Positions 1,450 through 33,771 of a stretch of 64,000 bases of DNA are shown piece after piece. Below the pieces are notes generated by a model that saw only the letters and a program-made list of their open reading frames with translations, did not search any database and was not told the DNA's origin. The position numbers and the translations under genes were made by a program. Within the stretch, counting starts at the first letter, position 1, and each line of letters starts with the position of its first letter. Source of the stretch: Candidatus Omnitrophota bacterium (GTDB taxonomy: Bacteria; Omnitrophota; Gorgyraeia; S143-82); the NCBI GenBank assembly GCA_015494465.1, contig WGBD01000001.1, positions 244,477-308,476 on the forward strand, given 5' to 3'.

Positions 1450-1460
1450 CTATCCCCCCT

Positions 1461-1658: not shown

Positions 1659-1672
1659 CTAATATTCAACCA

Positions 1673-3697: not shown

Positions 3698-3704
3698 AGC
3701 GCAT

Positions 3705-3735
3705 CCCCCCTCGCAGATTACTGCGAGTAAAGGGC
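3705..3735 (-). promoter_or_regulatory. Intercistronic stem-loop that overlaps the flgE ribosome-binding site
   Basis: Perfect inverted repeat CTCGCAG-ATTA-CTGCGAG at 3710-3727. In the mRNA it reads CUCGCAGUAAUCUGCGAG-GGGGGAU-GCGCU-AUG, so the 3' arm runs straight into the GAGGGGGG Shine-Dalgarno of flgE. Confidence 0.3.
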
Positions 3736-3766
3736 CTCCTCGGAGAGGGCCAGCCCTTTACTCAGA

Positions 3767-4159: not shown

Positions 4160-4160
4160 C

Positions 4161-4568: not shown

Positions 4569-4577
4569 AATCCCTCC

Positions 4578-8868: not shown

Positions 8869-8878
8869 ATCCCCCCTC

Positions 8879-9481
8879 TTAGCGACTGGAGGCGCCCTTG
8901 CCGATAACCTTGGCCTTTATCTCCTCCAACTGACTGCCTATCATGGCGTCTATCCGGCCCATAGAGGTCTGTATTACGCACCCGCCCCGGGAGACATCCT
9001 CCCGGGGAACGAAGTTGACTTTTGCGGTTATCCCCTGAAGGATGTCGTCTTTCCGCTCGAGGAGAATCGGCTCGTCTTCAGGGGATATGAATATCGTCAT
9101 CTCCTCCACCTCCTTCATACGGGATATCGCAGAGGAGACGATGTTAAGGACCAAGGACCTGTCTGTATCCAAGGCAGTGTTGACTATCTTCTCCGCTATG
9201 GTGAAGGCCAGTTCCACCAGATCCTTCTCCGCCTCGCGATATATCTGCTCCTTGTAGGCCAACAACTCCTCCACGACCGAGCTCAAGGACCGGATCTGCT
9301 CCTCTATCTGGGCAAGGGCCTCCTTCTTGCCCGCCTCAAAACCCTGTTGGTAGGCACGCCGGACTGCCTCTTCCAGACTCTCTTTCGGATCCTTCTCTTC
9401 CTCCCTGGGCAGGGCCGGGTCTTCGGGAGAAAATCGCCTGACCAGTTCTTCCGAACCGGAATGGATGATCCTCTTCCCCAT
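8879..9481 (-). CDS. fliH: flagellar assembly protein FliH
   Basis: 200 aa. The C-terminal GGCVIQTSMGRIDAMIGSQLEEI is typical of FliH. It lies between fliG and fliI. Confidence 0.7.
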   Translation of the reverse strand: MGKRIIHSGSEELVRRFSPEDPALPREEEKDPKESLEEAVRRAYQQGFEAGKKEALAQIEEQIRSLSSVVEELLAYKEQIYREAEKDLVELAFTIAEKIVNTALDTDRSLVLNIVSSAISRMKEVEEMTIFISPEDEPILLERKDDILQGITAKVNFVPREDVSRGGCVIQTSMGRIDAMIGSQLEEIKAKVIGKGASSR

Positions 9482-9484
9482 CCC

Positions 9485-10519
9485 TTACACCACCAACTCG
9501 TCCTCTTTTCCACCCCGACCGGATATCACTATCTCTCCTGCCTCCTCCAGCCTGCGGATTATGGCCACTATCCTCTGCTGGGCCTCCTCCACGGTGCGCA
9601 GCCTCACCGGTCCCATAAACTCCATCTCCTCCTTTATCGCCTCCGCAGCCCGCTTGGACATGTTCTTGAATATCTTCTCCTTCACCGCATCACTGGCACC
9701 CTTAAGGGCAACAGCCAGTTCCTTGGTGTCCACTTCCTTGAGGACCTGCTGGATACCGCGGTCGTTGATGTGGATGATGTCCTCAAAGACGAACATAAGC
9801 TTCCGCACCTCGTCTACCAGCTCCGGCTCGGTCTCCTCCATCGCCTCGAGTATCATCTTCTCCGTGCTCCGGTCCACATAGTTCAGTATCTCCGCGGTGG
9901 TCTTCACCCCTCCGGCAGTGGCGAGTCCTTGTGAAAAGAGGGAGGACAACTTGTGCTCAAGGGTCTTGCCTATGTCCATAACGATGTCCGGTGGGGTCCT
10001 GTCCATGGTGGTGATCCGTCGGGTTACCTCTATCTGCAGTTCCACCGGAAGAGAAGAGAGAATGCTCGCTGCGTACTCGGGCTCGAGATAGGAGAGTATC
10101 AGGGCAATGGTCTGAGGGTGTTCGTTCTGTATGAAGTTCAACAACTGCGAGGGCTCAGTCCGCTTCAGGAACTCAAACGGCGACTCCCCCGCCTTGCCTC
10201 CGACCTTGGCAATCAACTCCTGGGCCTTCTCCGGGCCCAGCGCTGCCTCCAAAAACTTCTGCGCGGTGAGCATGCCCCCCTTGATGAGCCGTCGCTTCTC
10301 CAAAAACCCCTCCCGAAACTCCCGCAGAACCGCATCTATCACCTCCTTGGAGACCGGCCCCAGATTGGCTATCTCCTTGGTGAGGAGTTCCACCTCGTGT
10401 TCGTCGAGGCGCTTAAAGATCTCGGCTGCCTTCTGCTGACCTATGGCCAACAGGAATACCGCTGCCTTCTGACGGGGGGTTAGGGCAGATGGGTCCTTTA
10501 TCACCTCTTCCTGAGGCAT
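9485..10519 (-). CDS. fliG: flagellar motor switch protein FliG
   Basis: 344 aa. LTPRQKAAVFLLAIGQQKAAEIFKRLDEHEVELLTKEIANL and the C-terminal torque helix region are FliG-like. Confidence 0.9.
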   Translation of the reverse strand: MPQEEVIKDPSALTPRQKAAVFLLAIGQQKAAEIFKRLDEHEVELLTKEIANLGPVSKEVIDAVLREFREGFLEKRRLIKGGMLTAQKFLEAALGPEKAQELIAKVGGKAGESPFEFLKRTEPSQLLNFIQNEHPQTIALILSYLEPEYAASILSSLPVELQIEVTRRITTMDRTPPDIVMDIGKTLEHKLSSLFSQGLATAGGVKTTAEILNYVDRSTEKMILEAMEETEPELVDEVRKLMFVFEDIIHINDRGIQQVLKEVDTKELAVALKGASDAVKEKIFKNMSKRAAEAIKEEMEFMGPVRLRTVEEAQQRIVAIIRRLEEAGEIVISGRGGKEDELVV

Positions 10520-11964
10520 CAGGACTCGCCCTCCTCTCCTTCCAGATACTCCCTCACCACATCCGCAGCCAGATCGTAGTTGTCCCCTATCACTTCACCG
10601 ATGTCCGGGGTACGGGGGCGCCGAGGGATCTGAGGCTTGACCTCGCTCACCGGCCTGGGCAGGCTCTGGGAGATGGACTTTATCGTGTTCTGCACGAAGA
10701 TTATCGCTATCAATAAGAGTATGCCCGCACCCGCGTACTTACCCACTTCCAAGGCAAGGGCCAGCATCTGTTCTTGACTCGCCTTCTTCTCTTGCTCTTT
10801 CAAGGCGGTCTTGTCAAACGGTATCTCGTTTATGGTAATGGTATCGCCCCGGGCGGGGTCCAGCCCCACTGCCTGGGCGACGAGGTCCTTGAGTTTGTTC
10901 TTCTCCTCCTCGGAGCGGGGCACATATTCCTTTTTGCCTCCTTTCTCCTCGTACTTCCCGTCCACCACCACCGCCACTGCCAAACGCTTTATGTTACCGG
11001 TAGACTCCACTATCCGGGCAACCGTCTTGCTCACCTCGTAGTTGGTAATCGCGTGCTCCTTTACCCCCTGACCGTCCGCAGAGGGCAGGACCTCTTTGGA
11101 GCTCTCTTCACTCCTGGGCACCAAAGACTCGGGATCGAACTTCTCCTCGGTCTTCTCTATCTTGGTGAAATCCAGATCCGCATTCACCCTCACCAAGGCC
11201 TTACCCGGCCCCAGCACCCCTGCCAGCATAGATGTGGCCTTCTGTTCCAGATACCGCTCCACGCTGCGCTTGACATCCAACTGGGCAGAGGACAGACCCT
11301 CTGCGGTGTCCATACCACCGTAAAGCAGGTCCCCGTAGGAATCTACCACGGTGATGTTCTCGGGTTTCAGCCCCTCCACCGAGCTGGCCACCAGGTGCAC
11401 TATCGCCCTCAACTGGGACTTGCTTAGCCCGGTGCTCGTATCCACCACCACCGATGCGCTCGGGGGTATGCGCTCCTCCTCGAACAACTCCCGCTTGGGC
11501 AGGGCAAGGTGCACCCTCGCACTGCGGATCCCCTTTATCGTGGATATCGTGCGGGCCAGTTCCCCTTCTAAGGCCCGCTTGTAATTGATCTGCTGGAGGT
11601 AATTGGTGGTGGTAAGGGAACTCTTGTCGAATATCTCGTATCCTACGCCCTTGCCCTGAGGCAGACCCTCCGAGGCAAGGGCGATCCTTGCCTGATAGAC
11701 ATACTTGCTCGGGACCATAATCACACTGCCCTTCACCTTCACCGGCACATTCATCTCCGCTAGTTTCTGTTGGATGGCCCCGGCATCTTGGGGATCAAGG
11801 TTTGCGTAGAGCACCGCATAATCCGGCTGGGCCAACCAGACCACCATCGCCACTATTACTATCAAAGAGGAGAAGAACACCAATCCCACGCTCAACTTCT
11901 GGGCAGAGGACATCTTGTTGAAGACGAGCAAGAACTGGCGGAGTATCTTGAGAAAATCACCCAT
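10519..11964 (-). CDS. fliF: flagellar MS-ring protein FliF
   Basis: 481 aa. It has an N-terminal TM segment and the YVYQARIALASEGLPQGKGVGYEIFD and RIPPSASVVVD motifs, followed by a C-terminal TM segment. Confidence 0.9.
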   Translation of the reverse strand: MGDFLKILRQFLLVFNKMSSAQKLSVGLVFFSSLIVIVAMVVWLAQPDYAVLYANLDPQDAGAIQQKLAEMNVPVKVKGSVIMVPSKYVYQARIALASEGLPQGKGVGYEIFDKSSLTTTNYLQQINYKRALEGELARTISTIKGIRSARVHLALPKRELFEEERIPPSASVVVDTSTGLSKSQLRAIVHLVASSVEGLKPENITVVDSYGDLLYGGMDTAEGLSSAQLDVKRSVERYLEQKATSMLAGVLGPGKALVRVNADLDFTKIEKTEEKFDPESLVPRSEESSKEVLPSADGQGVKEHAITNYEVSKTVARIVESTGNIKRLAVAVVVDGKYEEKGGKKEYVPRSEEEKNKLKDLVAQAVGLDPARGDTITINEIPFDKTALKEQEKKASQEQMLALALEVGKYAGAGILLLIAIIFVQNTIKSISQSLPRPVSEVKPQIPRRPRTPDIGEVIGDNYDLAADVVREYLEGEEGES

Positions 11965-12012: not shown

Positions 12013-12047
12013 ACATTATACCACATAACCAATTACTCACCTAATCG
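12013..12047 (-). promoter_or_regulatory. extended -10 promoter (TGGTATAAT) upstream of fliF
   Basis: The minus strand reads TGGTATAAT (complement of 12015-12023) in the 68-bp fliM(1)-fliF gap, about 50 nt upstream of the fliF ATG. The SD is CAGGGGGGTAAAGG. Confidence 0.45.
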
Positions 12048-12974
12048 GAGCACCTTCCTGCCGTTCTCGTTCTGCCACTTCGCCTTGGAAATCGGCTTGC
12101 TCTCCAGGTAAATGTCCACCTCAGGCACCGCCTTCTTGTCCAACACTATGACATCGCCCACCTTTAACGAGACCACATCCTTGACCTCCAACCTTATCCT
12201 ATCCAGGATCCCCCGCACATTCGAGGGCACGACCAACAGGTTGGAACGCCACCTCCGCTTCAATTCCGGACGACCGGCCTTGCCCGTCTGGCGCTTCAAG
12301 AGCCCCGGTATGAGGGGCTCCAGGAAGTTTATCGGGTAGCAAAGGCTCAGTATACCGTGGGCATCCCCCATCCTCACATCGAAACAGACCAACAGGACCA
12401 GCTCGTTCGGGGCCAACACCTGAGCGAAGTAGGGATTCGACTCCTTCTCCACCACCTTGGGATTCATCTCCGCAACGCCCGACCACATCTGCCGGAACTC
12501 GGAGAGGATCTTATCTATCACCCGGGTGGCGACCGTCCACTCTATCTCGGTCAGTTCCCGGTTCGGTTGGGATATGGGCCGGGCACTGCCCCCCATCAGC
12601 CTGTCTATTATCACCAAGAGGATGCTGGGGTTTATCTCCACCACAATCTTCCCCGGTATCGGAGGGCACTCCACGACATTAAAACAGGTGGCCAGAGGCA
12701 CGGACATCAAGAACTCCTGATAGGTGAGTTGGTCGATGGAGGATATGGAGACATCCAGCATCGAGCGGGTATAGCCCGCTATCGCCAGGGCAAGGTTCCT
12801 GGCAAAACTCTCGTGAAGGGCCCTTAATCGGCGCAGGCCCTCTTTAGGAAAGCGTTCGGGGTTGCGGAAGTCGTATATCCGGGCCTTGCGCTTGCGCAAT
12901 TCCTCAGGAGTGATCTTCTTGCTTTTCGACAATAGCGCGTCTATTTCCTCCTGGGATAGGATCTTGTCTGCCAT
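12033..12974 (-). CDS. fliM: flagellar motor switch protein FliM, full-length paralog with the N-terminal CheY-P binding peptide
   Basis: 313 aa. The N-terminus MADKILSQEEIDALLS contains the canonical LSQxEIDALL CheY-binding motif. A CheC-like middle domain and a C-terminal SpoA/FliN-like domain follow. A GAGGGTG SD sits 9 nt upstream. It starts 4 bp after the GH57 stop. Confidence 0.85.
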   Translation of the reverse strand: MADKILSQEEIDALLSKSKKITPEELRKRKARIYDFRNPERFPKEGLRRLRALHESFARNLALAIAGYTRSMLDVSISSIDQLTYQEFLMSVPLATCFNVVECPPIPGKIVVEINPSILLVIIDRLMGGSARPISQPNRELTEIEWTVATRVIDKILSEFRQMWSGVAEMNPKVVEKESNPYFAQVLAPNELVLLVCFDVRMGDAHGILSLCYPINFLEPLIPGLLKRQTGKAGRPELKRRWRSNLLVVPSNVRGILDRIRLEVKDVVSLKVGDVIVLDKKAVPEVDIYLESKPISKAKWQNENGRKVLRLGE

Positions 12975-12978: not shown

Positions 12979-15378
12979 TCACACCCTCACCCTTATTCGC
13001 CTTCCCAACTCCTCCCACAATACCTTCAGGTCCGGCAATATCTTATCCCGGGCTTCTTTATTGTAATGGATAAACACATTCTGCAGTTCCCAAAGGTTCA
13101 CCTGTATCCTCAACCTCGCGGACAACTCCAACAGCCTCAACAGATCCGCAAGGACTTCCCTATTCACCTCCTCGGAAAGGCGTACGACCAAGCCCTCCAG
13201 TATCCTCTCCAAGGCCTCCTTCACCTGCCCCACCTCAACCGAGCCACCGTAGCCCTCTATCTCCTCGATAACCGCGATTACCTGAGAATAGGTCTCGTCG
13301 TCAAGACTGCCCGAGGCCAGCAACGACTTCAGCCTGCGGTTCAGGACCTGCTGGATGACCAAGGTAAGGGTGAAGGGTAGGGAGTAGTTCAGGGCCCTCA
13401 AGCCTTCAAAGAATATCTGATAGGCGTCAAACAGAGACTCAAATGTCTCCTCAAAGTGGACCAGGGTCTCCTTAACCACCCGATCCAGTATCTTCTGTCT
13501 CTCGTCTATGACCACCACATCCATACCGTAGTAGGAGTGGCCAAAGTAGAGGTCCATCCTGCGAATCAACTCCGTCAGGTTGTGATCCCTGAAGGCAGAG
13601 GATATCCCGTTGATAAACTCACCAAAACCCGCGTCGTCGAATCCCTCCTTGAGCGAACACCTGACATCGTGTGCCCCACTGTAGAAGACCACGAACTCAA
13701 AAGCCCTCTCCTCCTCGGTAGGCAGATGGCCTATCTTCAGCCGACCCACGCTTATCTGGTAGTCGTTGAACGCGTCGCGGTAGAACTCGTCGCTGTCCAC
13801 TGCATAGACATACATCCGCACCGGATTGTCCTCCAGAGGAAGGAAGAGGTTGTATATGGCAAAGTGGGCAGACATCTCCTCTATCCCCCGCCTCCGCACC
13901 TTGGCGAAGTTTTCGTATATCCACGCACCGTCGTGGAACTCCTTTATGTTGCTCTTGGCCTCGGCCAGTATGGACTTTATCTCCTCCTCCACGCCGTCGA
14001 AGCCCAGGTCCTCTAGCAGTTCGATACACCGCACCGCGTAGGTCAGAATCTGGGTGGCCTCAAGGCCGGATATCTCGTCAAAAAACCAGGCACAACTGGT
14101 GAATATGAACAGGGAAAACTTCCCCGCCTCCAGTGCCTTCCATATCCTTACCCGCTCCTCCCGGGAGAGGCTCTTTCCGATCCTCTCCTCCAGCCACTCC
14201 CGGCGCAGGTGCGGTTTCAGCATCACCTGAATGTAATCCTTTAAGAGGGCATCCGGATCCCCGTACTCCCTTAAGACCTCCCCGATGGCCCCGTCGGTTA
14301 TCTCCCGCAAGCGGTCCATCGCCCTGCGCAGGGGCGTGCGCCACTTCTGGTTCCACTCATTACCACCTATCTTGCACCCGCAATCACTGCGCCAGCGCTC
14401 CACCCCGTGGGCACAGCTCCAGGAGGTGTTCTCCCATATCTCCACCTCAAACATCGGCGGGAACTTCGCAAGGAAGACAGAATAGTTGGTAATCTCCACC
14501 TCCGGATGCTCAAGAGCTCGCTTTATCGCGTAGGCAAGACCCATCTCCCCAAACTTGTGGTGGTGCCCGTAGGTCTCCCCGTCAGTGGCCACATTCACTA
14601 GCACCGCCGGCACATCCGAAAACGGCAGGGGCGCATCCGCCACCCCCAACAGTCTCTGAAAAAATGCCTCTCCGCTGTTCAACAGTCCCCCAAAGGCGAT
14701 GTCCTGAGCGATGGGCCCGTCGTAAAAGAACAGGACTATGCTCTTGCCCCCGGGCAACCTGCAGAGATAGGGAAACCGGCAGTCTATTCCGCCCTGAACC
14801 TCTATCCAGCGCTTGCTCCCCAACTTCCTAAAGCGTCTGGCCTGATAAGGCGAGAGTATCGTAAACTTTATACCGTGGTCCGCCAGGACCTCCAGAGTCT
14901 CTGTGTCCACCGCTGTCTCCGACAGCCACATCCCTTCGGGGTCGCGGTGGAAGTGATAGCGAAAGTCCTCTATCGCCCACTTCACCTGTATCTCTTTGTC
15001 CTTCCGGGTGGCCAAGGGCATTATTATGTGGTTGTATATCTGGGCGATGGCATTGCCGTGGCCGTTGTTCCTGTGGACGCTGGCGGTGTCCGCCTCTATT
15101 ATCTTCCTGTAGGTGGCAGGGGAATACCTCTCCAGCCAGCGCATCAGGGTGGGACCGAAGTTGAAACTTATGTACTCGTAGTTGTTCAACAACTCCACGA
15201 TGTACTGCTCCGCATCCAGTATCCTCGCAGCGGTATTCGGAGTGTAACACTCCGCATCCACCCTTTGATTCCAGTCGTGGTAGGGGTAGGCGGAATCCTG
15301 GCGCTCTATCACATCCAGCCAAGGGTTCTCCCTAGGGGGTTGATAAAAGTGGCCGTGAATACAGATGTACTTCTTCAT
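12979..15378 (-). CDS. glycoside hydrolase family 57 protein (alpha-amylase / 4-alpha-glucanotransferase / branching-enzyme family)
   Basis: 799 aa. The N-terminal ICIHGHFYQPPRE box, GMWLSETAV (nucleophile Glu) and ATDGETYGHH (acid/base Asp) are GH57 signatures. There is no signal peptide. Confidence 0.8.
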   Translation of the reverse strand: MKKYICIHGHFYQPPRENPWLDVIERQDSAYPYHDWNQRVDAECYTPNTAARILDAEQYIVELLNNYEYISFNFGPTLMRWLERYSPATYRKIIEADTASVHRNNGHGNAIAQIYNHIIMPLATRKDKEIQVKWAIEDFRYHFHRDPEGMWLSETAVDTETLEVLADHGIKFTILSPYQARRFRKLGSKRWIEVQGGIDCRFPYLCRLPGGKSIVLFFYDGPIAQDIAFGGLLNSGEAFFQRLLGVADAPLPFSDVPAVLVNVATDGETYGHHHKFGEMGLAYAIKRALEHPEVEITNYSVFLAKFPPMFEVEIWENTSWSCAHGVERWRSDCGCKIGGNEWNQKWRTPLRRAMDRLREITDGAIGEVLREYGDPDALLKDYIQVMLKPHLRREWLEERIGKSLSREERVRIWKALEAGKFSLFIFTSCAWFFDEISGLEATQILTYAVRCIELLEDLGFDGVEEEIKSILAEAKSNIKEFHDGAWIYENFAKVRRRGIEEMSAHFAIYNLFLPLEDNPVRMYVYAVDSDEFYRDAFNDYQISVGRLKIGHLPTEEERAFEFVVFYSGAHDVRCSLKEGFDDAGFGEFINGISSAFRDHNLTELIRRMDLYFGHSYYGMDVVVIDERQKILDRVVKETLVHFEETFESLFDAYQIFFEGLRALNYSLPFTLTLVIQQVLNRRLKSLLASGSLDDETYSQVIAVIEEIEGYGGSVEVGQVKEALERILEGLVVRLSEEVNREVLADLLRLLELSARLRIQVNLWELQNVFIHYNKEARDKILPDLKVLWEELGRRIRVRV

Positions 15379-19725: not shown

Positions 19726-20478
19726 TTAAAAGCTACTCGCCAAAGACTTCACCAGCAGGTTCCAGCCGTCCGCCAGCACGAACAACAGCAGTTTAAACGG
19801 AAGAGATATCATTATCGGCGGGACCATCATCATACCCATTGCCATCAATACGCTGGCCACGACCAGATCTATTACCAAAAACGGGACATACAACAAGAAG
19901 CCTATGGTGAACGCAGTGCGCAGTTCGCTTATCACGAACGCGGGGATCAAGACAGACATCGGGACATCTATTCTCCTCGACGGCACAGGCGTGTGTGATA
20001 TCTGAAAGAACAGGGCCAGATCCTTGTTCCGGGTCTGTTTCAACATAAATTTCTTGAAGGGGAGCTGTATGCGTCTGCCTGCCTCGTAAATGGTTATCTC
20101 GCCGTTCATGTACGGTTTTACCGCCGTGGACATTGCCTCCCTCCAGACTGGGGCCATTATCATAGCGGTCATGAACAGGGCCAGACCCACGAATATCTGG
20201 GTGGGTGGCAACTGCTGGGTACCGAGGGCGTGGCGCAAAAAGGCAAAGACGACGATTATCCTGGTAAAGGAGGTCATCATCAACACGATCGACGGAGCCA
20301 AGGACAAGACGGTGAAGAGCAAGAACAACTGTACGGTAAAACTGACCTCTTCCTGGGTCTGGGCAGGTTGCACGAAGGTAAACTTCGGCACCCACCACGA
20401 GGGTGTAGCGGAGTACCCCAGGTTAGCACCTAACAACAGGCCAAAAGCCACCACCAAGGCCTTCGTATTAAGCCTCAT
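19726..20478 (-). CDS. fliP: flagellar biosynthetic protein FliP
   Basis: 250 aa. Signal peptide, then FTRIIVVFAFLRHALGTQQLPPTQIFVGLALFMTAMIMAPV and ISELRTAFTIGFLLYVPFLVIDLVVASVLMAMGMMMVPP. Confidence 0.9.
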   Translation of the reverse strand: MRLNTKALVVAFGLLLGANLGYSATPSWWVPKFTFVQPAQTQEEVSFTVQLFLLFTVLSLAPSIVLMMTSFTRIIVVFAFLRHALGTQQLPPTQIFVGLALFMTAMIMAPVWREAMSTAVKPYMNGEITIYEAGRRIQLPFKKFMLKQTRNKDLALFFQISHTPVPSRRIDVPMSVLIPAFVISELRTAFTIGFLLYVPFLVIDLVVASVLMAMGMMMVPPIMISLPFKLLLFVLADGWNLLVKSLASSF

Positions 20479-20935
20479 CTATCCTCCGTCTGATCGCCCG
20501 TTTCAGCTCCTCCAGTTGGGCCTCTATGTCCTTTAATTGGTCCCCATAGCCACTCCGAGGCTCAAGTTCCTCCATAGATCGTTTGAGATCTGCGATAAAG
20601 CGAGTGCCTTCAGGCATGCGGGTCAACAGATTGACGGAGTTATCGGTTACGCCTATCAGATACCTCTCTCCACTCACCTCCACCACACACAATTGGGCTC
20701 GAGGAGAGAAGTAGTACCTCTCCAAGACCTTTATCCCGCCACCTGCCTCTCCCCTTCTGCGCAGAAACACCATCCGGAGGAGGAGTAAGGTCCCAATCAA
20801 CAAGGCCAACACCACTGCCACGGAGAGGAGGTAGTTGCCTAGGCCCACCTCGGCACCAGTTTTAGCCGGTTCTGCGAGTAGCCAATTGGGGGTTCCCGTT
20901 ATAATGTTCGCTACATCGTTCACCGAGGTCTGCAT
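20468..20935 (-). CDS. fliO: flagellar biosynthesis protein FliO/FliZ
   Basis: 155 aa with a single TM segment (LLSVAVVLALLIGTLLLL). It sits immediately upstream of fliP and overlaps it. Confidence 0.6.
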   Translation of the reverse strand: MQTSVNDVANIITGTPNWLLAEPAKTGAEVGLGNYLLSVAVVLALLIGTLLLLRMVFLRRRGEAGGGIKVLERYYFSPRAQLCVVEVSGERYLIGVTDNSVNLLTRMPEGTRFIADLKRSMEELEPRSGYGDQLKDIEAQLEELKRAIRRRIDEA

Positions 20936-20936
20936 C

Positions 20937-21272
20937 CTACTTCTCCCCCGTCTCTCCTACCGACTTAGTGTCTATTATCTCCGTGATCCTAACCCCGAAG
21001 TTTTCCTCAATAACGACGACCTCTCCCCTTGCCACGAGCTTGTTATTGACCAATATGTCCACGGGATCTCCTGCCAGCTTATCCAATTCTATCACCGATC
21101 CGGGACCGAGATTTAAGACCTCCTTAAGCGGCATCACCGTACGCCCCAATTCGATAACTACATCCAAAGAGACATCCATCAACAGGTCAATGTTCTTGAC
21201 GGGGGTTACTATGTCCCCCTGGAGTTCGTTGAGAGATGCGTTCCTTATGTCCGGATTCTTCTCTTCCGCCAT
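20937..21272 (-). CDS. fliN: flagellar motor switch protein FliN
   Basis: 111 aa. SpoA/FliN domain ([64 protein letters not shown]). Confidence 0.85.
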
Positions 21273-21293
21273 GACTCACCACACCTCCTAGAC

Positions 21294-22169
21294 CTAGTAT
21301 GTCACCACCGATACGAGCTTTACTGCCCGCTTCTTCTCCACTCGGCCTAAGACCCCCTTAAACAGCAACCTATCGTTGACCTGCACGTGAACCTTATCCG
21401 ACACCGGGGTCCTGACATCTATCACATCCCCAGGCTTGAGCCTCTTGACCTGGGAAAGCGCCAACTGGATAGGCGGAAAGGTCACGACCAGAGGGACATC
21501 CACATCCTTGACCCTCTCCTCCCCCAAGCGGGCCTCGCCTTTAGCCCTGGCCCGGAGCATGTGCTGGGCACTCAACTTGGGCAACAGCTCCTCCAAAGAT
21601 ATGAACGAAACGACCAAGGATATCTTCCCACTCACATCACCGATAACCGCGGAGTAATCGCAAAATAAAACCGGCTCGTTCGGGGAAAACGACTGCACGA
21701 ACTGGGGATTCGACTCTATCTCCACCAGATTGGGTTCTAGGTTGACCAGGGAATGCCATACCTCCTTTATGGCCCCACTTACCACCCTGAAAAGACGACG
21801 GATAAGGACGAGTTCGAGCTCGGTGAAGTCCCGGATCTTGGGAGCACCCCTTCCCTGTCCGCCAAGCAACCTGTCTATCAGAGAAAACATAAATTCCGGA
21901 GAGACATACACCACCATCTGACCTTCCAGGGGAGGAATGTCCCATATACCTATACAGGAGGGGACGCTCCAGCCTGCCATTACCTCTCCAAACGGGGTCT
22001 GGGATACGGATTCTAGGCGCACCTGCACCACGGTCCTCAACATCGCAGACCATTCCACTGTAGCCACTCTAGAGAAGTTCTCGTGGAGTATCTGAAGGTT
22101 TCTTAACTGGTCCTTTGATATCTTCTCTGGTTTGTTGAAGTCGTATGTCTTGACCTCTTTGGTAATCAC
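21294..22169 (-). CDS. fliM: FliM paralog lacking the N-terminal CheY-P binding peptide
   Basis: 291 aa. It starts at MITKEVKTYDFNKPEKISKDQLRNLQILHENF, which matches FliM from about residue 35 onward. The middle and SpoA domains are intact. It sits in the canonical fliL-fliM-fliN context. Confidence 0.75.
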   Translation of the reverse strand: MITKEVKTYDFNKPEKISKDQLRNLQILHENFSRVATVEWSAMLRTVVQVRLESVSQTPFGEVMAGWSVPSCIGIWDIPPLEGQMVVYVSPEFMFSLIDRLLGGQGRGAPKIRDFTELELVLIRRLFRVVSGAIKEVWHSLVNLEPNLVEIESNPQFVQSFSPNEPVLFCDYSAVIGDVSGKISLVVSFISLEELLPKLSAQHMLRARAKGEARLGEERVKDVDVPLVVTFPPIQLALSQVKRLKPGDVIDVRTPVSDKVHVQVNDRLLFKGVLGRVEKKRAVKLVSVVTY

Positions 22170-22654
22170 TGGATGACGAACTCCGAGAAGTAGACCCCCA
22201 CTACCTTGCCTTGACTCAGGATCTCGTTAACCTTGTCCATTATCTCCTGCTTCAGGCGGTCCTTTCCCGCCAGGGGCATTACATCGTCTAAGCTCTTGCT
22301 GGAAAAGATGGTGATTAGGATGTCCTTTATCTCCGGCAGTTTCTTGTTTATCTCCTCCAACACCTCTTCCTTATCGACCTCGAAGACGGGATTGACCTTC
22401 AGGTAGCGCTCCGCGTTTACCTCAGCGAGGTTCACTATGAAGGGATCCTCGAACTGGTAAAATATACCAGGCTCTTTCTTCTCCTGCTTGACCTCTTCTT
22501 TAGGTGCCTCTTCGGCTTTCTTGTTCATGGTCAAAAAGAAAAACCCTCCCCCAGCTAACGCCAACACCACGGCTGCCACGACGACCAAAAGTATAGGGTT
22601 CAGCCCTTTCTTGGCCTGATTAGCCTCTTTTACCTCCGGATCCGGCATGATCAA
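22166..22654 (-). CDS. fliL: flagellar basal-body-associated protein FliL
   Basis: 162 aa with one TM segment. FEDPFIVNLAEVNAERYLKVNPVFEV is FliL-like. It is positioned between motB and fliM. Confidence 0.75.
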   Translation of the reverse strand: MIMPDPEVKEANQAKKGLNPILLVVVAAVVLALAGGGFFFLTMNKKAEEAPKEEVKQEKKEPGIFYQFEDPFIVNLAEVNAERYLKVNPVFEVDKEEVLEEINKKLPEIKDILITIFSSKSLDDVMPLAGKDRLKQEIMDKVNEILSQGKVVGVYFSEFVIQ

Positions 22655-23325
22655 CTCCTCCCGAGTACCTCTTTTGCCCTCAACACGATGTCTATCTTAA
22701 CCGCCTTATTCAGAGAATCGTCCCTGCGCCCCTCCGGATAAAGGTGCACGAAAGGTACGCCCTGCCTGTGAAGATATTGCATCACGGAAAAGGCCCGCCA
22801 ATAAGCGACTTCCCAGTCCTTATCCCCGCCAAAACCACCTGCATAACCCACAATTGTTATACCATAGGGAGTATCGAAATACAACGCCAACATCCTCTGC
22901 AAGAAGAGCTTTGCCTTCGCTGACAGATCGCCTTTATCGGATGTGAAGAACATGGACTCGTCAAAACATATGTGTATCCTCCCGAGGGCGTCGTAGCTCA
23001 CATTCACCGGCTGGCCAGGCTTTTGGGGCTCAGAGGTAAACTCTATCCCCTGAAGGTCTTCCAGCTTCAACCTCTTCAATATCCTCATTATCCTGGTCTG
23101 GGCAACATCCGGCTTGGTAATGATGGCCCCTCCACCCTCCAAGATCCCTGCACCTCCGGTCCCAAAGGCCCCAAAGGCGCTCTTTATGGAGGTGATCACC
23201 GTGTTCATCTTCTTGTTTGGCTCCTGGGTCCCCATGCTCACCAAAAGGATAAAGAAGGTCATCAATAGGGTCATCAAGAGCCCGTAAAGGAGCATGTATC
23301 CAGGGGCGGACGGTTCGTCTCCCAT
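22651..23325 (-). CDS. MotB-like protein with a degenerate OmpA-like C-terminal domain
   Basis: 224 aa. PGYMLLYGLLMTLLMTFFILLVSM resembles the MotB plug/TM region. The C-terminus (IVGYAGGFGGDKD..AYWRAFSVMQYLHRQGV..KIDIVL) is only loosely OmpA-like. Confidence 0.55.
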   Translation of the reverse strand: MGDEPSAPGYMLLYGLLMTLLMTFFILLVSMGTQEPNKKMNTVITSIKSAFGAFGTGGAGILEGGGAIITKPDVAQTRIMRILKRLKLEDLQGIEFTSEPQKPGQPVNVSYDALGRIHICFDESMFFTSDKGDLSAKAKLFLQRMLALYFDTPYGITIVGYAGGFGGDKDWEVAYWRAFSVMQYLHRQGVPFVHLYPEGRRDDSLNKAVKIDIVLRAKEVLGRS

Positions 23326-23337
23326 CCCTTCACCTCC

Positions 23338-24126
23338 TCATATACTGGAATAATCTGGGGTCCTGCCGATGATCACGATCTCTATCCTTCGGTTTCTGGC
23401 CCTGTGCTCCGGGGTGTCGTTAGGCACGACCGGCTTCAGGTCCCCCAGACCTGCCACCCCTATCCTCTCAACCGGCATGCCGTTGTCGATGAGGAAGTGA
23501 GCCACCGCCAAGGCTCGGTGAAGTGAGAGGTCAAAGTTGTCCTTATAGGGTCCTCCCCACTTCACGGGGATGTTATCCGTGTGTCCCTCTACCACTATGG
23601 GGTTGTCGACATAAAGCAGTAAGGGCAAGATCTTCTTCAGCACCCGCTTGGCCTCTTCGCTGAGCTGGGTAGAACCCTTCTCAAAGAGGATCTCGTTGTG
23701 TATCCTGATGGAGTATCCTCTCTGTACTTTAGTGATCTCGATGTACTTGTAGATCCCCTGACTCTTTACATAGCCCTTCAGGTTCATCAACTTCTTCACT
23801 ACCGCAGACTGCTCCCGGAAGGTCAAGGCCCTACGGTTCCTCACCAATACGGTGACGATCCGCTCGAGCTTCTCAAGCCCAGTGCCCCTACCTGAGAACC
23901 CCGCTCCTCCGAAGCGCAAGGAAACAGAACCGATAAATCCACCTACCTTTAACTCGTCAAATGAGGTGAAAGAGACGAGCATCACGAAAAAGGTGAGCAA
24001 AAGGGACATCGCGTCGCCAAAGGTGAGCATCCAAAAAGGACAGGTCGGCCCCTCGTCTTCCTCTACCTCTTCTTCTTTCTTCTTGCGCTTATCAGCCATC
24101 TCCCCCCACCAGATGGCAGTGCCCAC
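23338..24126 (-). CDS. motB: flagellar motor protein MotB
   Basis: 262 aa. CPFWMLTFGDAMSLLLTFFVMLVS is the MotB TM/plug region. The C-terminal OmpA domain is GHTDNIPV...LSLHRALAVAHFLIDNGMPVERIGVAGLGD...NRRIEIVI. Confidence 0.85.
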   Translation of the reverse strand: MGTAIWWGEMADKRKKKEEEVEEDEGPTCPFWMLTFGDAMSLLLTFFVMLVSFTSFDELKVGGFIGSVSLRFGGAGFSGRGTGLEKLERIVTVLVRNRRALTFREQSAVVKKLMNLKGYVKSQGIYKYIEITKVQRGYSIRIHNEILFEKGSTQLSEEAKRVLKKILPLLLYVDNPIVVEGHTDNIPVKWGGPYKDNFDLSLHRALAVAHFLIDNGMPVERIGVAGLGDLKPVVPNDTPEHRARNRRIEIVIIGRTPDYSSI

Positions 24127-25189: not shown

Positions 25190-25930
25190 CTATATCAGTT
25201 CCGCCACATCGTACTCCTCAACCGCCTTGGAAAACCAGGAAATCTCGTCCAGCTTCCCGTTAAACCTGTTTCGTTCACCATCCGAGGCCAGGTAAACTGC
25301 CTCCCTTACCAGATCCTCGTCTCGAGCCAGTTCCAATACCGTATGCCAGAATGTATCCCTTGCCTCAGGTTTACCATTTAGGTAAAGCGTGAGCATCCCA
25401 TTGTTAACGACCACTGCCAAGTGGATCCACTCCCTCTCTGGGAGATCCAAGGGCAAACGGAGCACCTCCCTATCCCCATCTCTAAACCTGAGGACGACCT
25501 CTATCCGATTAGGATAGACCGGATCCCCCCTAACCTCGAGAGGTGCAGAGTGAAGTAAAACCGTATCTTTTTCTATACCCCGATGATAGAACCAAAATCC
25601 AACGCTGAAGCCCTGGGGAGAAAAGATCCAGGGATCCAGGACCTTCATCTCGTAAAACCCGTCCTCGTCTATAAAATCAGGGGCATAACCCCGCACCCCG
25701 TCACTGATGTCGGCCTCCCCACGAAGGAGGGCACAGCCCTCCTCCTCTAACAGGTTCTTTGCAGTCTGTAAGTTGCCGTCGTCGAAGTCCACAAATATGC
25801 GGAGAGAAGGATTAGAAGGAGAAAGCCCTAGAAGGCTCAATACGGTCAAGATCAACCCAAAACGGATCCATCTCCTCATTTCCGGCCCCTTTCTTAAGCG
25901 GTATCCCCTGACCAAATAATCATACCACAC
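25190..25930 (-). CDS. secreted hypothetical protein with a concanavalin/LamG-like jelly-roll domain
   Basis: The likely true start is MRRWIRFGLILTVLSLLGLS (25879), which is a signal peptide. The body (FSVGFWFYHRG..LLHSAP..IHLAVVVNNGMLTLYLNGK) looks like a LamG/ConA-type lectin fold. Confidence 0.4.
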   Translation of the reverse strand: MWYDYLVRGYRLRKGPEMRRWIRFGLILTVLSLLGLSPSNPSLRIFVDFDDGNLQTAKNLLEEEGCALLRGEADISDGVRGYAPDFIDEDGFYEMKVLDPWIFSPQGFSVGFWFYHRGIEKDTVLLHSAPLEVRGDPVYPNRIEVVLRFRDGDREVLRLPLDLPEREWIHLAVVVNNGMLTLYLNGKPEARDTFWHTVLELARDEDLVREAVYLASDGERNRFNGKLDEISWFSKAVEEYDVAELI

Positions 25931-28419: not shown

Positions 28420-31400
28420 CTATTCCAAGATTATACCACCCGGTTGGTTCCAGTTGGCCCTGATCTGGCTTACCAACTGTTCCATCCTCTCCAGCACATC
28501 TTTACTGCCCAACTTCTCCAAAATACTGGTAACCTCGTCTCGATAGCTCCCTAAGCGGAGGTCCAGGTCCAACATACCCCCGAGGAGGTCCAGCTCTTGC
28601 TCGGAGAAGGCCTCCTCCGTCACCTTCGACGCCAGATCCCGGAGTTCCTCTCTCAGCTGGGTCAACTCCTCTTCGGAGATTGGCTCATCTACCTTGTGGA
28701 GTAGAAGGAGGTATCCCTTCTCAGGATGTCTTAATAGGCTCACCACCCGATATCCCTGGAGAACTGCGGAGTGCACTGCTTCCAAAAGCTCGTCTTTCTC
28801 CAACCATTGGGGATTTTCTATTTCATACACATTCCCCCTCCACATAAGTGACCTTGGCCCTTCTTGCCAAGTATACACTTCCCTCGAGAAGACCTCTGTA
28901 TATCGCTTCATCACTGCGGAATCCTTAACCGAATCAAACTCTTTAGTCACAACATCCAGCACATAGGGATCGAATGGACGGGGAAGGATCAGCCTCTCGC
29001 CGAAAAGGAAGGCAAAGACCTCTCCTTTCGAATCGGAGATTACGCGCAACTCTTCATCAGATCTCGGCTCGCCGGTGGATCCCTTCGCAAAGTCCTCCAT
29101 AATCGTCTTCCAATTCGCTGACACCTCACCTACGACTCGTTCTATGTCCTCCTCCTTATCTGCGAGATCAAACCAGATCCCCAATTCCTTGCTCTTCATA
29201 GAGATCGCTGGGTCGAAGATGTGCTCTCGAGCCAACTCCCCAATTGGACCAACCACATCCCGGAAGCGTATCCACTTCACGAAAAACCTCTTGATGCGCT
29301 CACTCCACTCGACATCGTCCTCAGAAACACCGCCCTTAGGGAGGAGGGACACGAGTCCGTGTATAGCAGAGAGTCGGTAGAGGAAGTAATCCCCGACATC
29401 CCTTAAGATTATCGAGTCCTTCTCTTTGTCTATGGCCCGCGGGGTTTGGGCCCCGCTCTTCCCCTCATATCGGGCTATGCGCATAATTAGAGGAAAGAGT
29501 TTGTCTCTCCACATCTTATCCGCCCTTTGTCTATCTCCCTCTCGCACCGCCTTAGAAAACTCTCCGCAAAGACGATAAAAGCCGGTTCTGCGGAACTTCT
29601 TTACAAACCCGCCCTTTTTAACTGCCTCCTCGTCGGAATACTCGTCCAAAAGCTCTCTTACCTCATCGAAAAGCTCATCTACATCCCCGGAGGTCTTCCT
29701 TAGCTTCCGCTTCACTATCCCTCCGAGGGGCGCATAAAGGATACCTAATAAGCGGGAGAGAGACCTGTCTACCTCATCGTTCAACTCCCTAGGCAGAAAG
29801 ACCCACACCGCATCCGAGATCGCAGTGGCCCTTACCGCCTTGTCTACCTGCAAAGCCAGCCGTCTATCCCTTATCCTTGACCGGATCATCCAAGTGGGCA
29901 GGCGTCGGTCCAACGGGACCAACAGGTCCTTGGCCAGGGTCAGGATACGATACTCTTCCCGAGTTGGGGAGTTGTAGAAGAGATAGCGCAGGAACATCCT
30001 CTTGCTAGGATGGGCTCGGGCTATGTCGTATTCGCCCCTCGCTATTCCCTTACTCCTGAGGGCCTTCATCATCAGGGCCTCGTCTTGTCTCAACAAGGCA
30101 ACCATGGCCAACAAGACCGGGTATTCTGGTCCCAACGGCCCCCCTAGGGCCCGGAATCTTACTACCGGGAAGACCTCCCGACGATTGTGAAACCTCTGGT
30201 TCGTCCTTTCCACGAACCTGTCTTCGAATCCCTCGGGGAGCCAATCGTTGGAATATACCGCAAACCTCACCCGAGGAGCACCAAACCTGTCCAATCCCAC
30301 TGGCCACTTATTCGTCCAGATAAGACCCTTCCTTTCCTCTAAGGCCTTGCCAAACTTGTCGTAGCCCTCCTTTATGGCAAAGGCGAAGATCTCCTGGAGC
30401 GGATAGTTGAGCCCCCTTTCCGCCATGTAGGCCTGAGCGGAGACCACCGGAAAGACCCAGAAGGGATTAGACATGTACCGAATAAATCGCTGAGTTAACT
30501 CCTTCATCCCGAACTGCCGGAACAGATAAACGCGCATCTCTTTATCAAAGAGCTTGCTCACATCTCCCTTGCGCCTGTATCTCCAGGCATTAACACACAC
30601 CCGATCTACGGTATCCAACACCTTTTTCACATCCCCTGGCAGGTAGTCTCGGTTGAGTCTGTAGACCATCTGGCGCAACAGGTTCATACCTAGCCTATAA
30701 TCCACCGACCCTGCATAACCTCCTAACTCGCGCAATTCCTCCTCGGGAAGCAGGGCCATTAAACGAATGAAGGCCTCGAACAACCTTCCTCTCAACCCCT
30801 CCACCTCTTCGGAATCGATCGCTTGACTCGCCAGGAGTTCCGCAAGCCGACTCACATCGGAGAGAAACTCTCGTTTCAACTGAATCGGATCAACGGTTTT
30901 CTCCGTCTTTACCACTTCTCCACCCAGAGCAGGTTCTTCCTCTTGAAGCATAACGACCTCATCTTGAGGTTGTTTGCCCTCCCGCTCTGCCAAGGGATTC
31001 ATCATCCGGGAGAGTTTCATCAATCCTCCCGTCCCCAAGGCACTGAGTCCTCCGTAAATCGCTAAACGCCTCAAAAAGGCCCTCCTGCTCATACCATCCT
31101 CTCCCAAACTCCACAACGACTTTGGATCCCACCTGGGATAGACTAAGGACAACTTCCCTTTTATCAAAGATAGCTTGAGCTCCCCCAAGACATCAGAGAT
31201 CCGATCCGGATCAAAGAGCCCCCCCAAGACCGACTCAAAAAAGCCAAGCACATCTAGATTTCGTGCGTCCAATATGTTCGTATCCTCTAATTTCTTAAGA
31301 GACCTTTGGAAGAGAGGACCAAAGGTCATACCTCCCTGAAAGACTTCTTTCTCCAACAACCTGTTCAACAGGTACTGCTCCAAGCTGTGGACCAAGATAG

Positions 31401-33771
31401 GCCTGTTTTCCCCCAGTATGGTAAGGGGAAAGAGCCTCCCCAACAGTCTGCTCCACTCCTGGAGGCCATCGCTCCCCAACACCCTCTCCACCACCGCCAA
31501 GCCCCCGACATCTGCCAGAAACTCACTAATCAAGGCGGAGAAGACATCCCGGGTGAGATCGCCTGGCTCTAGACTGGGGACCTTCTCTTCCAAGAGCCCG
31601 TACACCAGGTTGTGGGTTATCTCGTGGGCCAAGATAGAGCCCACCAAAAGGGAAACATTCGATCGGGCAAAGAGGACCATATTCAAAGGGTGGAAGGCAT
31701 AACTCGCATCGCCGAAGAACCCCCCTCCCCGGATCACCGTCCTTGCGAACAATATCTTTTCCAGCATCCACCTTTTAAGATCGTCCTTCTCCTCTTGTCC
31801 AGAGAGGGAGACCACCGTAGGGGTAAGTAAGGTCAAGACGGTCTTGATCTTCTGCTCCAGCAGGCGAGGATCCGCACAGGAAGAGAGCACCTCCTTCACA
31901 AAGTCCTTATCCTGGGCCCAGTGTAAGAACTCATCCCAAACTTCTCTGAGATAGCTGTTATCTCTAAAAGCGAGGTAAAGACCAGCCCTCATCCTCACCT
32001 CCCGGGGAAGGGTCTCGTCTGAGAAAAGACTCTCCAGTAACTTATTCGGTATGGACCTCTGTACGAGGAAGTCCAACAAGGCGGTAGCGTAAAACGGATC
32101 GTCCTGCCAGTAATAAATCCGATTAATGGCAGAGACCAGATTCCCAAGCTCGTTCCACAGGAGATACCGAACTTGCTTCCTCCCTGATTTACCCTCGGGA
32201 ACAGAGGTCCAAAGGTAGATCAAGGTCTTTAGGGAGATCTCCTGCAGATAGGGGAGAATACCTTCCAATCTATCCAGAAAGGCATCTGACTTTGCCATCG
32301 TCTCTAAGAGTATCGGATTCTGGGAGGAAAGACTTTCCAAAAAACTAGCTAGTCTATTCGGAGGACAACTAGAACCCAAGATCGAGGCTATATCGTTGAG
32401 GTAATCCTGGAGCCAGGGATGGTCTATAAACAGGTCTGCGTCCCCTAGGAACTCCACAAACGAGTTCCATTGCTCTTCGTCGAGATCAACTCTCCCGCTC
32501 TCTACGAGTCTTCCCAATTGATAAAAGCCCTTTGCCCTGTCGGACAAAGAATCGAACTCCAAGGGAGAACCGGTCAAACCTGCGATGAACAGGGCTATGT
32601 CCTCTCCCATACCCAAACGAGCGATCTTCCCGACATGTTCCTTCCCCAACCTGATCTCCAAAACCTCGTCTATCGATCGCTTGGTCAGGTACATCCTTAG
32701 GGCAAGGAGCGATAGATAGATATCCTCGTGCCGGTTATTCCTAAACACATCTATCGCGGAGTCCAACAGCTCCCGGGAGTGAACGGGGAATTGAGAGTAG
32801 AACAAGCGGAAAAAATCTACCGTGGGATTGTACCTTCTATTCCGCACTACAGTGGGGTTGCGGGAGATAAAAAACCAGTTCAAGATCAACGGTTCTAAGA
32901 GGTCCGGGCGCTGGGCTAGTTCCATAAGCCCCTGCGCAAACCAGACCTCATCCCGCCTCCATATCCGCTCAAGCATCTCCCGCACGTCCTCTATCCCCAT
33001 CTTGTCCATGCCCATCCCCAGATCCGAGAGCAGGACATACATCTTTTCCCCAGGAGTAAGGTCTGGATCTGACACTACGCGACCGTAAATCCGGGAAATC
33101 CTGCTGGCAAAGTCCTCGACCTCGACCGCGTGGTAGGCATCCGCCCCTATGTTTAACGGGGGAAGCTCTATGCCCCCGACTATTCCCTCCTCGGAGAACA
33201 GGTCCCGATGGTACAGGGAAAGGATCCAATCTGTCCCCTCAGGGTAGGCCCTGCCAGGGTATCCCCTTCTCAACAACCCGATCTTTCCGGCCCAGTCCCT
33301 ACCTCGATAGAACCAATAGACTGCCCTCCGCAAGGGGTAAAACTCTTGCGATTCGTTGACTATACTTGCCAACTCGGGAACGAATTCTTGGATTCCTTCC
33401 GCGCCCTCTGCCTTCACCTCAAAGCGCACCTCAGGGAATACCGCCTCCGGGACCAACCACAGCCTGAATACAGAATCCTCATCCGATCCGAAACCCGAGA
33501 CCAGTTCCTTGGCAATCTCTTTTAGGCGGTAATCGTAGTAAAGGAGGAAAGCGGTCATCTCAGGGAAGGCTATCTGCCCTGAGGAGAGCTCTTCCCTCTT
33601 CGCAAACGGCGAGAGATTAACCCAGGCCTCTCCGCTAAGAACTCCCGACCAGAAGGCAACCGAATCGTAGGGATAGAGCTCAACGACCTCAGGGCGGGCC
33701 TGGGGTAAAGGAAAAGTAAAAAACAAACAAATCGCTAAAAAGGTGTTAAGCCATCTCGTCTTTCTTCCCAT
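28420..33771 (-). CDS. giant secreted protein of unknown function with an HExxH...ExxxD metallopeptidase-like motif
   Basis: Uninterrupted 1783-codon frame. Signal peptide MGRKTRWLNTFLAICLFFTFPLPQA. ILAHEITHNLVYG...SEFLAD lies around aa 700. An internal Tat-like hydrophobic segment (SRRAFLRRLAIYGGLSALGTGG) lies around aa 880. Confidence 0.6.
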   Translation of the reverse strand: MGRKTRWLNTFLAICLFFTFPLPQARPEVVELYPYDSVAFWSGVLSGEAWVNLSPFAKREELSSGQIAFPEMTAFLLYYDYRLKEIAKELVSGFGSDEDSVFRLWLVPEAVFPEVRFEVKAEGAEGIQEFVPELASIVNESQEFYPLRRAVYWFYRGRDWAGKIGLLRRGYPGRAYPEGTDWILSLYHRDLFSEEGIVGGIELPPLNIGADAYHAVEVEDFASRISRIYGRVVSDPDLTPGEKMYVLLSDLGMGMDKMGIEDVREMLERIWRRDEVWFAQGLMELAQRPDLLEPLILNWFFISRNPTVVRNRRYNPTVDFFRLFYSQFPVHSRELLDSAIDVFRNNRHEDIYLSLLALRMYLTKRSIDEVLEIRLGKEHVGKIARLGMGEDIALFIAGLTGSPLEFDSLSDRAKGFYQLGRLVESGRVDLDEEQWNSFVEFLGDADLFIDHPWLQDYLNDIASILGSSCPPNRLASFLESLSSQNPILLETMAKSDAFLDRLEGILPYLQEISLKTLIYLWTSVPEGKSGRKQVRYLLWNELGNLVSAINRIYYWQDDPFYATALLDFLVQRSIPNKLLESLFSDETLPREVRMRAGLYLAFRDNSYLREVWDEFLHWAQDKDFVKEVLSSCADPRLLEQKIKTVLTLLTPTVVSLSGQEEKDDLKRWMLEKILFARTVIRGGGFFGDASYAFHPLNMVLFARSNVSLLVGSILAHEITHNLVYGLLEEKVPSLEPGDLTRDVFSALISEFLADVGGLAVVERVLGSDGLQEWSRLLGRLFPLTILGENRPILVHSLEQYLLNRLLEKEVFQGGMTFGPLFQRSLKKLEDTNILDARNLDVLGFFESVLGGLFDPDRISDVLGELKLSLIKGKLSLVYPRWDPKSLWSLGEDGMSRRAFLRRLAIYGGLSALGTGGLMKLSRMMNPLAEREGKQPQDEVVMLQEEEPALGGEVVKTEKTVDPIQLKREFLSDVSRLAELLASQAIDSEEVEGLRGRLFEAFIRLMALLPEEELRELGGYAGSVDYRLGMNLLRQMVYRLNRDYLPGDVKKVLDTVDRVCVNAWRYRRKGDVSKLFDKEMRVYLFRQFGMKELTQRFIRYMSNPFWVFPVVSAQAYMAERGLNYPLQEIFAFAIKEGYDKFGKALEERKGLIWTNKWPVGLDRFGAPRVRFAVYSNDWLPEGFEDRFVERTNQRFHNRREVFPVVRFRALGGPLGPEYPVLLAMVALLRQDEALMMKALRSKGIARGEYDIARAHPSKRMFLRYLFYNSPTREEYRILTLAKDLLVPLDRRLPTWMIRSRIRDRRLALQVDKAVRATAISDAVWVFLPRELNDEVDRSLSRLLGILYAPLGGIVKRKLRKTSGDVDELFDEVRELLDEYSDEEAVKKGGFVKKFRRTGFYRLCGEFSKAVREGDRQRADKMWRDKLFPLIMRIARYEGKSGAQTPRAIDKEKDSIILRDVGDYFLYRLSAIHGLVSLLPKGGVSEDDVEWSERIKRFFVKWIRFRDVVGPIGELAREHIFDPAISMKSKELGIWFDLADKEEDIERVVGEVSANWKTIMEDFAKGSTGEPRSDEELRVISDSKGEVFAFLFGERLILPRPFDPYVLDVVTKEFDSVKDSAVMKRYTEVFSREVYTWQEGPRSLMWRGNVYEIENPQWLEKDELLEAVHSAVLQGYRVVSLLRHPEKGYLLLLHKVDEPISEEELTQLREELRDLASKVTEEAFSEQELDLLGGMLDLDLRLGSYRDEVTSILEKLGSKDVLERMEQLVSQIRANWNQPGGIILE

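Follow-up and report, generated by a model that had tools for sequence, protein, structure and literature searches.

Two fliM genes around one set of flagellar genes

The window, by which we mean the whole stretch of 64,000 nucleotides analysed here, derives from a Candidatus Omnitrophota MAG, as do the related loci with which it was compared (given L numbers below). It encodes two versions of FliM, a protein usually regarded as a single-copy core component of the flagellum. One gene, here fliM-short, occupies the fliL-fliM-fliN position, and the other, fliM-full, follows a glycoside hydrolase gene. The principal features, in order of position, are:

688-1449: motA, away from both motB-like genes in this genome
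9485-10519, minus strand: fliG, the sole FliG gene seen
10519-11964, minus strand: fliF, the sole MS-ring gene seen
12015-12023, minus strand: TGgTATAAT, resembling an extended -10 element (a consensus match only), where 68 nt separate fliM-full from fliF
12033-12974, minus strand: fliM-full, a 313-aa FliM with docking peptide, GGSA motif and derived C-terminal SPOA domain
12930-12962, minus strand: codons for ILSQEEIDALL (FliM-full residues 5-15), the putative docking peptide for CheY-P and FlhG
12979-15378, minus strand: gene for a GH57 + DUF3536 glycoside hydrolase, 4 nt upstream of fliM-full
19726-20478, minus strand: fliP, at the end of an operon fragment with fliO
20468-20935, minus strand: fliO, at the same fragment end
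20937-21272, minus strand: fliN (111 aa), immediately 3' of fliM-short, with no EIDAL motif
21294-22169, minus strand: fliM-short, a FliM of 291 aa that lacks the EIDAL peptide and linker at its N-terminus and has an intact GGQG motif in FliM_M and a canonical C-terminal SPOA domain
22166-22654, minus strand: fliL, whose TGA overlaps the fliM-short GTG and closes the upstream frame
22651-23325, minus strand: second motB-like gene (MotB_plug and a weak OmpA domain), upstream of fliL
23338-24126, minus strand: first motB-like gene (MotB_plug and OmpA), upstream of fliL
54023-54787, minus strand: gene for a YcgR-like PilZ protein (PilZNR + PilZ), between flhG and fliA and kept in L006 and L008
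54784-55629, minus strand: flhG, encoding a MinD-like ATPase
60712-60984: fliQ, displaced from fliP

In two relatives, L006 (GCA_054040295.1) and L008, fliM-short lies inside a single uninterrupted operon that runs fliI-fliJ-x-LysM-fliK-flgD-x-flgE-flbD-motA-motB-motB'-fliL-fliM-fliN and continues after fliN with fliO-fliP-fliQ-fliR-flhB-flhA-flhF-flhG-PilZ-x-fliA, a layout similar to that of the Bacillus fla/che operon. The window's operon has been cut at motA/motB and at fliP/fliQ and rearranged into three blocks, extending from fliF to motA (688-11964), from motB to fliP (19726-24126) and from fliQ to fliA (53082-60984). The position of fliM-short between fliL and fliN is shared by the window, L001-L004, L006, L008, L013 and L015, and the tandem pair of MotB-like genes is kept in every Omnitrophota locus examined (L006, L008, L013 and the deeply diverged L015). 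Housekeeping genes (asd, purine synthesis, mnmG) are interspersed among the window's flagellar blocks, and a gene for a solute-binding lipoprotein follows motA. Between fliJ and the LysM gene, positions 6589-7155 (minus strand) encode a protein similar to MgtE_N and weakly to FliG_M, kept in L006 and L008. A 1783-aa open reading frame (28420-33771, minus strand) lies near the gene for a Laminin_G_3 protein (25190-25930), and downstream of fliA the minus strand carries genes for DUF6115, HD-domain, TPR, HDOD, PAS and CHASE2-SpoIIE phosphatase proteins (45868-52479), signalling genes that may regulate motility.

In the window, as in related loci totalling about 300 kb, fliF, fliG, fliH, fliI, fliN, fliP, flhA, flhB and flgE are single-copy, which rules out a second complete flagellar system on the available sequence. 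The flagellar neighbours of fliM-full (fliF or flgFG) complement the main set and do not duplicate it. Because one fliG is seen, both FliM proteins would have to dock on the same FliG.

The full-length gene lies 8.3 kb from fliM-short on the same strand, close to the initial estimate of about 8 kb. It is absent from the fliL-fliN slot, and in every member of its clade examined the GH57 + DUF3536 gene stands directly upstream, at a spacing of -8 to +4 nt, and is itself preceded by pseudopilin-like genes. Downstream lie fliF (window and L001), flgF-flgG-flgA-flgH-flgI (L012), purF (L013) or an MscS channel gene (L010). A sister lineage of fliM-full (L014, L016 and L017) has a GH65 phosphorylase gene upstream instead, together with a trehalose-phosphatase-like gene. 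The -10-like element between fliM-full and fliF suggests that fliF-fliG-fliH-fliI may have a promoter of its own, with no dependence on read-through from GH57-fliM. A scan for sigma-70 promoters and terminators returned matches no better than those found in shuffled sequence.

The truncated N-terminus of FliM-short

Both proteins are FliM according to the NCBI equivalog model TIGR01397, scoring 238.1 bits (FliM-short) and 244.7 bits (FliM-full) against a cutoff of 219.6, and both contain the two FliM Pfam domains (PF02154 and PF01052), so the initial annotation of two FliM paralogs holds. Residues 3-288 of FliM-short correspond to model positions 30-318, with the FliM domain at residues 9-199 and FliMN_C at 218-289, and FliM-full covers model positions 1-315. 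Comparison with solved structures, in which both paralogs match FliM of H. pylori, T. maritima and Salmonella, places residue 34 of Salmonella FliM opposite residue 5 of FliM-short, in line with the earlier proposal that the short copy starts near FliM residue 35; FliM-full aligns with Salmonella FliM from residue 1. Thus by profile and structure alignments alike FliM-short has no LSQxEIDALL docking peptide. The FliM of the fliL-fliM-fliN slot was correctly described as missing this peptide, and the linker is gone with it; its fliL and fliN neighbours were likewise confirmed. The N-terminus of FliM-full, MADKILSQEEIDALL, contains the peptide, and ILSQEEI[DN]ALL is kept in all 11 sequences of the fliM-full clade (10 clusters, 311-314 aa, 63-97% identical to the window copy).

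The 291-aa reading frame of fliM-short is the maximal one in its frame and opens at the first start codon that follows an in-frame stop. The GTG start and the fliL TGA overlap as GTGA (...atccaGTGAttacc), and the sequence across the fliL stop and the fliM-short GTG reads ...atccaGTGAttaccaaagaggtcaagacatacgac. Because of this overlap no upstream start is possible, and the arrangement fits translational coupling of the two genes. In eight independent loci the maximal fliM-short frame is 291-298 aa long and begins 0-7 codons ahead of a conserved [ST]KEV[KR]TYDF, and an in-frame stop must therefore lie just upstream in each. The earlier statement that no upstream in-frame start restores the peptide is borne out by the stop, the fliL overlap and the closed frames in the eight loci, which together rule out a hidden N-terminal extension, a frameshift or an alternative start. 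The missing high-affinity peptide suggests that FliM-short would be unable to dock CheY-P, with weak secondary sites on FliM_M or FliN still possible.

The truncation is a property of a clade. Clustered at 90% identity, FliM-short and its relatives fall into 11 groups with lengths of 291-294 aa and 60-100% identity to the window protein, and all members share the N-terminus M..[IV][TS]KEV[KR]TYDF. As dS was saturated in most pairs, dN/dS was taken only from the three pairs with unsaturated dS, where its values of 0.043, 0.100 and 0.061 indicate purifying selection on fliM-short. Between the window and L001, dN was 0.30 for FliM-short, 0.19 for FliM-full, 0.15 for FliL and 0.10 for FliN, making FliM-short the fastest evolving of the four switch-region genes compared. 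The deeply diverged L015 has a 289-aa FliM starting MLETEVYDF, assigned by NCBI to Candidatus Omnitrophota, in the same slot (motB-motB'-fliL-fliM-fliN); this FliM is 31% identical to the window's FliM-short, and FliP and FlhA are 56-57% identical. Because a peptide-less FliM occupies the same slot at such a distance, the truncation looks old within Omnitrophota.

That the short gene has a wrongly called start, is a pseudogene, or comes from a chimeric assembly or a contaminating contig is barely credible. The source is a MAG and the start codon is GTG, but two relatives have ATG at the same start position and the frame is closed upstream in all eight loci. Moreover, three genomes (window, L001 and L013) have both fliM genes on a single contig and a fourth (L006 and L012) has them in one assembly, an independent assembly of SRR10312501 matches the window at 99.85% identity through a 2-kb stretch spanning fliM-short, and fliM-short is under purifying selection.

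Divergence of the two FliM lineages, and the chemotaxis genes

FliM-short and FliM-full are 31% identical over 249 residues, and in a neighbour-joining tree of 76 FliM proteins their clades were sisters in none of 200 bootstraps. This rules out a recent tandem-type duplication and marks the two as an old pair, neither a recent duplicate nor an artefact. The fliM-full clade joins P0105-P0108 with 95% bootstrap support, and the fliM-short clade joins other N-terminally truncated FliM proteins in a union supported by just 46%, deep branching in this tree being weakly supported. The sister lineage of FliM-full, 39-40% identical to it, is found in the company of chemotaxis genes. L016 has fliM(full)-fliY-like-cheY-cheX and then flgF-flgG-flgA-flgH-flgI, and L019, from a named Omnitrophica MAG, has PilZ-RR-fliM-HTH-fliY-cheY-cheX. 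The L019 FliM starts MAENTLNQDEVNALL and has the GGSA motif, as in FliM-full.

Among 55 non-N-terminal columns conserved at 80% or more in 184 other FliM proteins, FliM-short keeps 42 of the near-universal residues and FliM-full 43, but in different sets. FliM-short retains F270, G275 and A282 of the SPOA domain as well as GGXG and has lost the C..P strand motif; FliM-full retains the C..P motif but none of the three SPOA residues, and it has GGSA in place of GGXG. The GGXG loop contacts FliG_M. It is GGQG in the window's FliM-short, and both first glycines and the last are invariant across the clade; the corresponding region of the fliM-full clade is GGSA, GGSS or GGSG, with a variable fourth position. 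AlphaFold (AF2) models, with pLDDT of 83.2 for FliM-short and 80.5 for FliM-full, predict helices and strands in the same order for both, with a shift of 25 residues, and one extra helix in FliM-full at residues 8-16, where the peptide lies. The FliM_M domain of the FliM-short model superimposes on H. pylori FliM in its complex with FliG (4FQ0) with a TM score of 0.96 and an rmsd of 1.1 A, and the whole model chain matches FliM of the Salmonella C-ring. The CheC motif [DS]-x3-E-x2-N-x22-P is missing from both paralogs, which rules them out as CheC-type phosphatases.

The window contains no che gene, and direct tblastn searches of the window and the first loci matched neither CheY nor CheW. A CheY ortholog, P0388, which is 73% identical to the CheY of L016, is recorded on a 781,960-bp contig, as is the window's FliM-short, both in the same source set. 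L018 is a copy of the P0388 CheY region from the same sequencing run, with a GC content of 52.8% (53.6% in the window) and the gene order cheR'-RR-cheA-PilZ-fliY-like-cheY. The case that L018 belongs to the window's genome is strong but indirect. Genes for CheA, CheY and a FliY-like phosphatase are thus very probably present in the organism, and the CheY sensitivity of its motor is therefore a meaningful question. The L018 CheY has the usual features (DD, TDWNMP, T, Y..KP). FliY-like proteins of 285-305 aa adjoin cheY in L018 (3063-3920), L016 (10979-11896) and L019 (9087-10004), so the organism would have FliN and FliY besides two FliM proteins. All three keep the first CheC motif, D-x3-E-x2-N-x22-P. 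None has an EIDAL peptide, and since FliN also lacks it, FliM-full is the only EIDAL carrier seen. The YcgR-like protein of the main operon and the small PilZ protein of L018 suggest a possible c-di-GMP input into the same motor.

A proposed mixed switch ring and its alternatives

The most economical reading of the pair, to which we assign a probability of about one half, is subfunctionalisation with a mixed C-ring, in which Omnitrophota would carry two anciently diverged FliM lineages with the jobs of the switch protein divided between them. Both proteins would assemble on the single FliG ring. FliM-short, produced in step with FliL and FliN, would be the bulk structural subunit, and FliM-full would be the sole source of high-affinity tethers for CheY-P and probably, during assembly, for FlhG as well. 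With FliM-full as the only supplier of tethers, each motor would have fewer CheY-P capture sites than the conventional ring of about 34, which may alter the sensitivity and cooperativity of switching. In favor of this reading, both paralogs are FliM by curated models, structure matches and predicted fold; a single set of flagellar genes is seen, and the relatives' uninterrupted operon has fliM-short in its canonical place; and fliM-full is associated with fliY-cheY-cheX in sister lineages and its peptide is conserved in the clade. On the other hand, at 31% identity heterotypic contacts between the two FliM proteins are not guaranteed, the GGSA motif and the three lost SPOA positions mean that FliM-full might bind FliG and FliN differently, or bind FliY instead, and the coupling of fliM-full to the GH57 gene means that its expression may not follow the flagellar hierarchy. 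A stricter version, which seems to us unlikely, is an obligate two-component lattice in which FliM-short with FliN and FliM-full with the FliY-like phosphatase would hold fixed positions in the ring. If so, CheY-P capture, CheY-P hydrolysis and FlhG docking would be limited to a fixed subset of rotor subunits, and the motor would be a natural test of how many signal sites a cooperative switch needs.

The components of this arrangement have counterparts in known systems, beside whose EIDAL-less FliM proteins and paralog-diversified C-rings the Omnitrophota pair belongs. In E. coli, FliM without its first 16 or so residues reportedly assembles but does not capture CheY-P, and in motors of mixed FliM the ratio of competent to incompetent subunits is said to set switching behavior, as described by Bren and Eisenbach and by Sarkar et al. 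Those engineered motors are one-gene laboratory constructs, whereas the Omnitrophota forms are natural, about 31% identical, conserved in clades and encoded at separate loci. The lateral FliM2 of Shewanella putrefaciens, described by Bubendorfer et al. in 2014, is likewise said to have no docking peptide, and FliM-short resembles it and the FliM proteins of other gammaproteobacterial lateral systems in having no working CheY-docking N-terminus. Lateral FliM proteins, however, are part of a complete second gene set that supplies a separate FliG, FliN and stators, whereas a single set is seen in Omnitrophota, and there, unlike in lateral systems, it is the copy without the peptide that the main operon contains, the copy with the peptide being the orphan. 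In C. jejuni and H. pylori the C-ring contains diverged FliN/FliY paralogs with divided roles, and FlhG localisation is tied to the ring; the EIDAL motif itself binds CheY and is present in most FliM proteins (PMC6946799). In gene content, the four Omnitrophota genomes resemble this type in encoding two diverged SPOA switch-protein paralogs for one system, but in Campylobacter and Helicobacter it is the FliN-like protein that is doubled and the single FliM keeps EIDAL, whereas in Omnitrophota FliM is doubled, EIDAL is on one copy, and FliN and a FliY-like protein are both present. In Bacillus and Thermotoga EIDAL need not be restricted to a single switch protein, and it is recognised by CheY-P as well as by FlhG, the latter docking on the N-terminus of FliM, or of FliY in Bacillus, during completion of the C-ring, and FliY is a CheC-type CheY-P phosphatase (PMC12826062). 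Whereas FliM and FliY both bear the peptide in Bacillus, only FliM-full does so in Omnitrophota, FliM-short and the FliY-like protein being without it.

The two FliM proteins may instead never meet in one ring. Possible, if not likely, is that homomeric rings of FliM-short (CheY-blind and unidirectional) or of FliM-full (CheY-responsive) alternate by motor or by condition, which would let a cell with one flagellar gene set switch between tactic and non-tactic swimming. The separate transcription units (the fla operon, and the position tightly behind GH57) and the deep divergence of two lineages that are never sisters fit such an exchange, as does the precedent of lateral systems, whose EIDAL-less FliM proteins lie on long, fast-evolving branches and whose motors are unresponsive to chemotaxis (PMC8203827, PMC8042155). 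Yet in sister lineages FliM-full is accompanied by FliY, CheY and CheX and by no other rotor parts, so that all motors must share FliG, FliN and the export apparatus, and a regulator choosing between the paralogs was not identified. Rather unlikely, too, is that the rotor consists essentially of FliM-short and that FliM-full serves as an adaptor for assembly and number control or as an off-ring CheY-P scaffold, its peptide recruiting FlhG and presenting CheY-P to FliY, with any control of direction passing through, for example, PilZ proteins. The derived SPOA domain of FliM-full, with its GGSA motif, would agree with a role outside the ring, and genes that would suit such a role are present, namely flhF, flhG and the YcgR-like PilZ gene in the fla operon, the second, small PilZ gene between cheA and fliY in the L018 che cluster, and the FliY-like proteins beside cheY, which have the CheC active-site motif and no EIDAL of their own; in other species FlhG binds the N-terminus of FliM or FliY (PMC12826062). 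FliM-full nevertheless has a complete FliM_M and SPOA architecture, its adjoining CheY, CheX and FliY point to motor switching, and its slower evolution relative to FliM-short in the same genome pair (dN 0.19 as against 0.30) fits a constrained ring subunit.

It is also conceivable, but improbable, that FliM-short still responds to CheY, either through a tether supplied in trans by FliM-full or by FliN/FliY or through direct binding to FliM_M, in which case the truncation would have little effect on behavior. In E. coli and T. maritima, CheY-P that has been captured by FliM_N goes on to act at secondary sites, which lie on FliN or FliM_M, and FliM-short keeps most of the near-universal FliM_M residues. 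These established secondary sites on FliN and FliM_M are, however, weak without a tether, and FliM-short is the fastest evolving of the four switch-region proteins, resembling in this the FliM proteins of non-chemotactic lateral motors (PMC8042155).

Peptide-less FliM proteins are not rare on their own. About 20-25 of the best 150 FliM representatives (at 50% identity) have no recognisable EIDAL motif, among them the FliM of Thermaerobacter and a group of fusion proteins of about 600 aa. Proteins of about 605-630 aa with no EIDAL and a long C-terminal extension (P0277, P0286, P0306, P0309, P0322-P0324, P0329, P0346, P0350 and P0360) have a FliM domain that begins near residue 20-30. What is new is therefore the pairing, conserved within one flagellar system, of a peptide-less FliM in the operon with an orphan FliM that bears the peptide; a description of paired FliM proteins, in Omnitrophota or elsewhere, was not found in the literature. 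Annotation pipelines give both proteins the name FliM, so any conclusion on chemotaxis in this uncultivated phylum requires a check of which copy has the peptide. The pair is a natural and conserved case in which, within one flagellar system, the structural body of FliM has been set apart from the peptide that captures the signal. If both proteins are in the ring, models in which the ultrasensitivity of the switch depends on the number of CheY-binding protomers would become testable on an evolved example.
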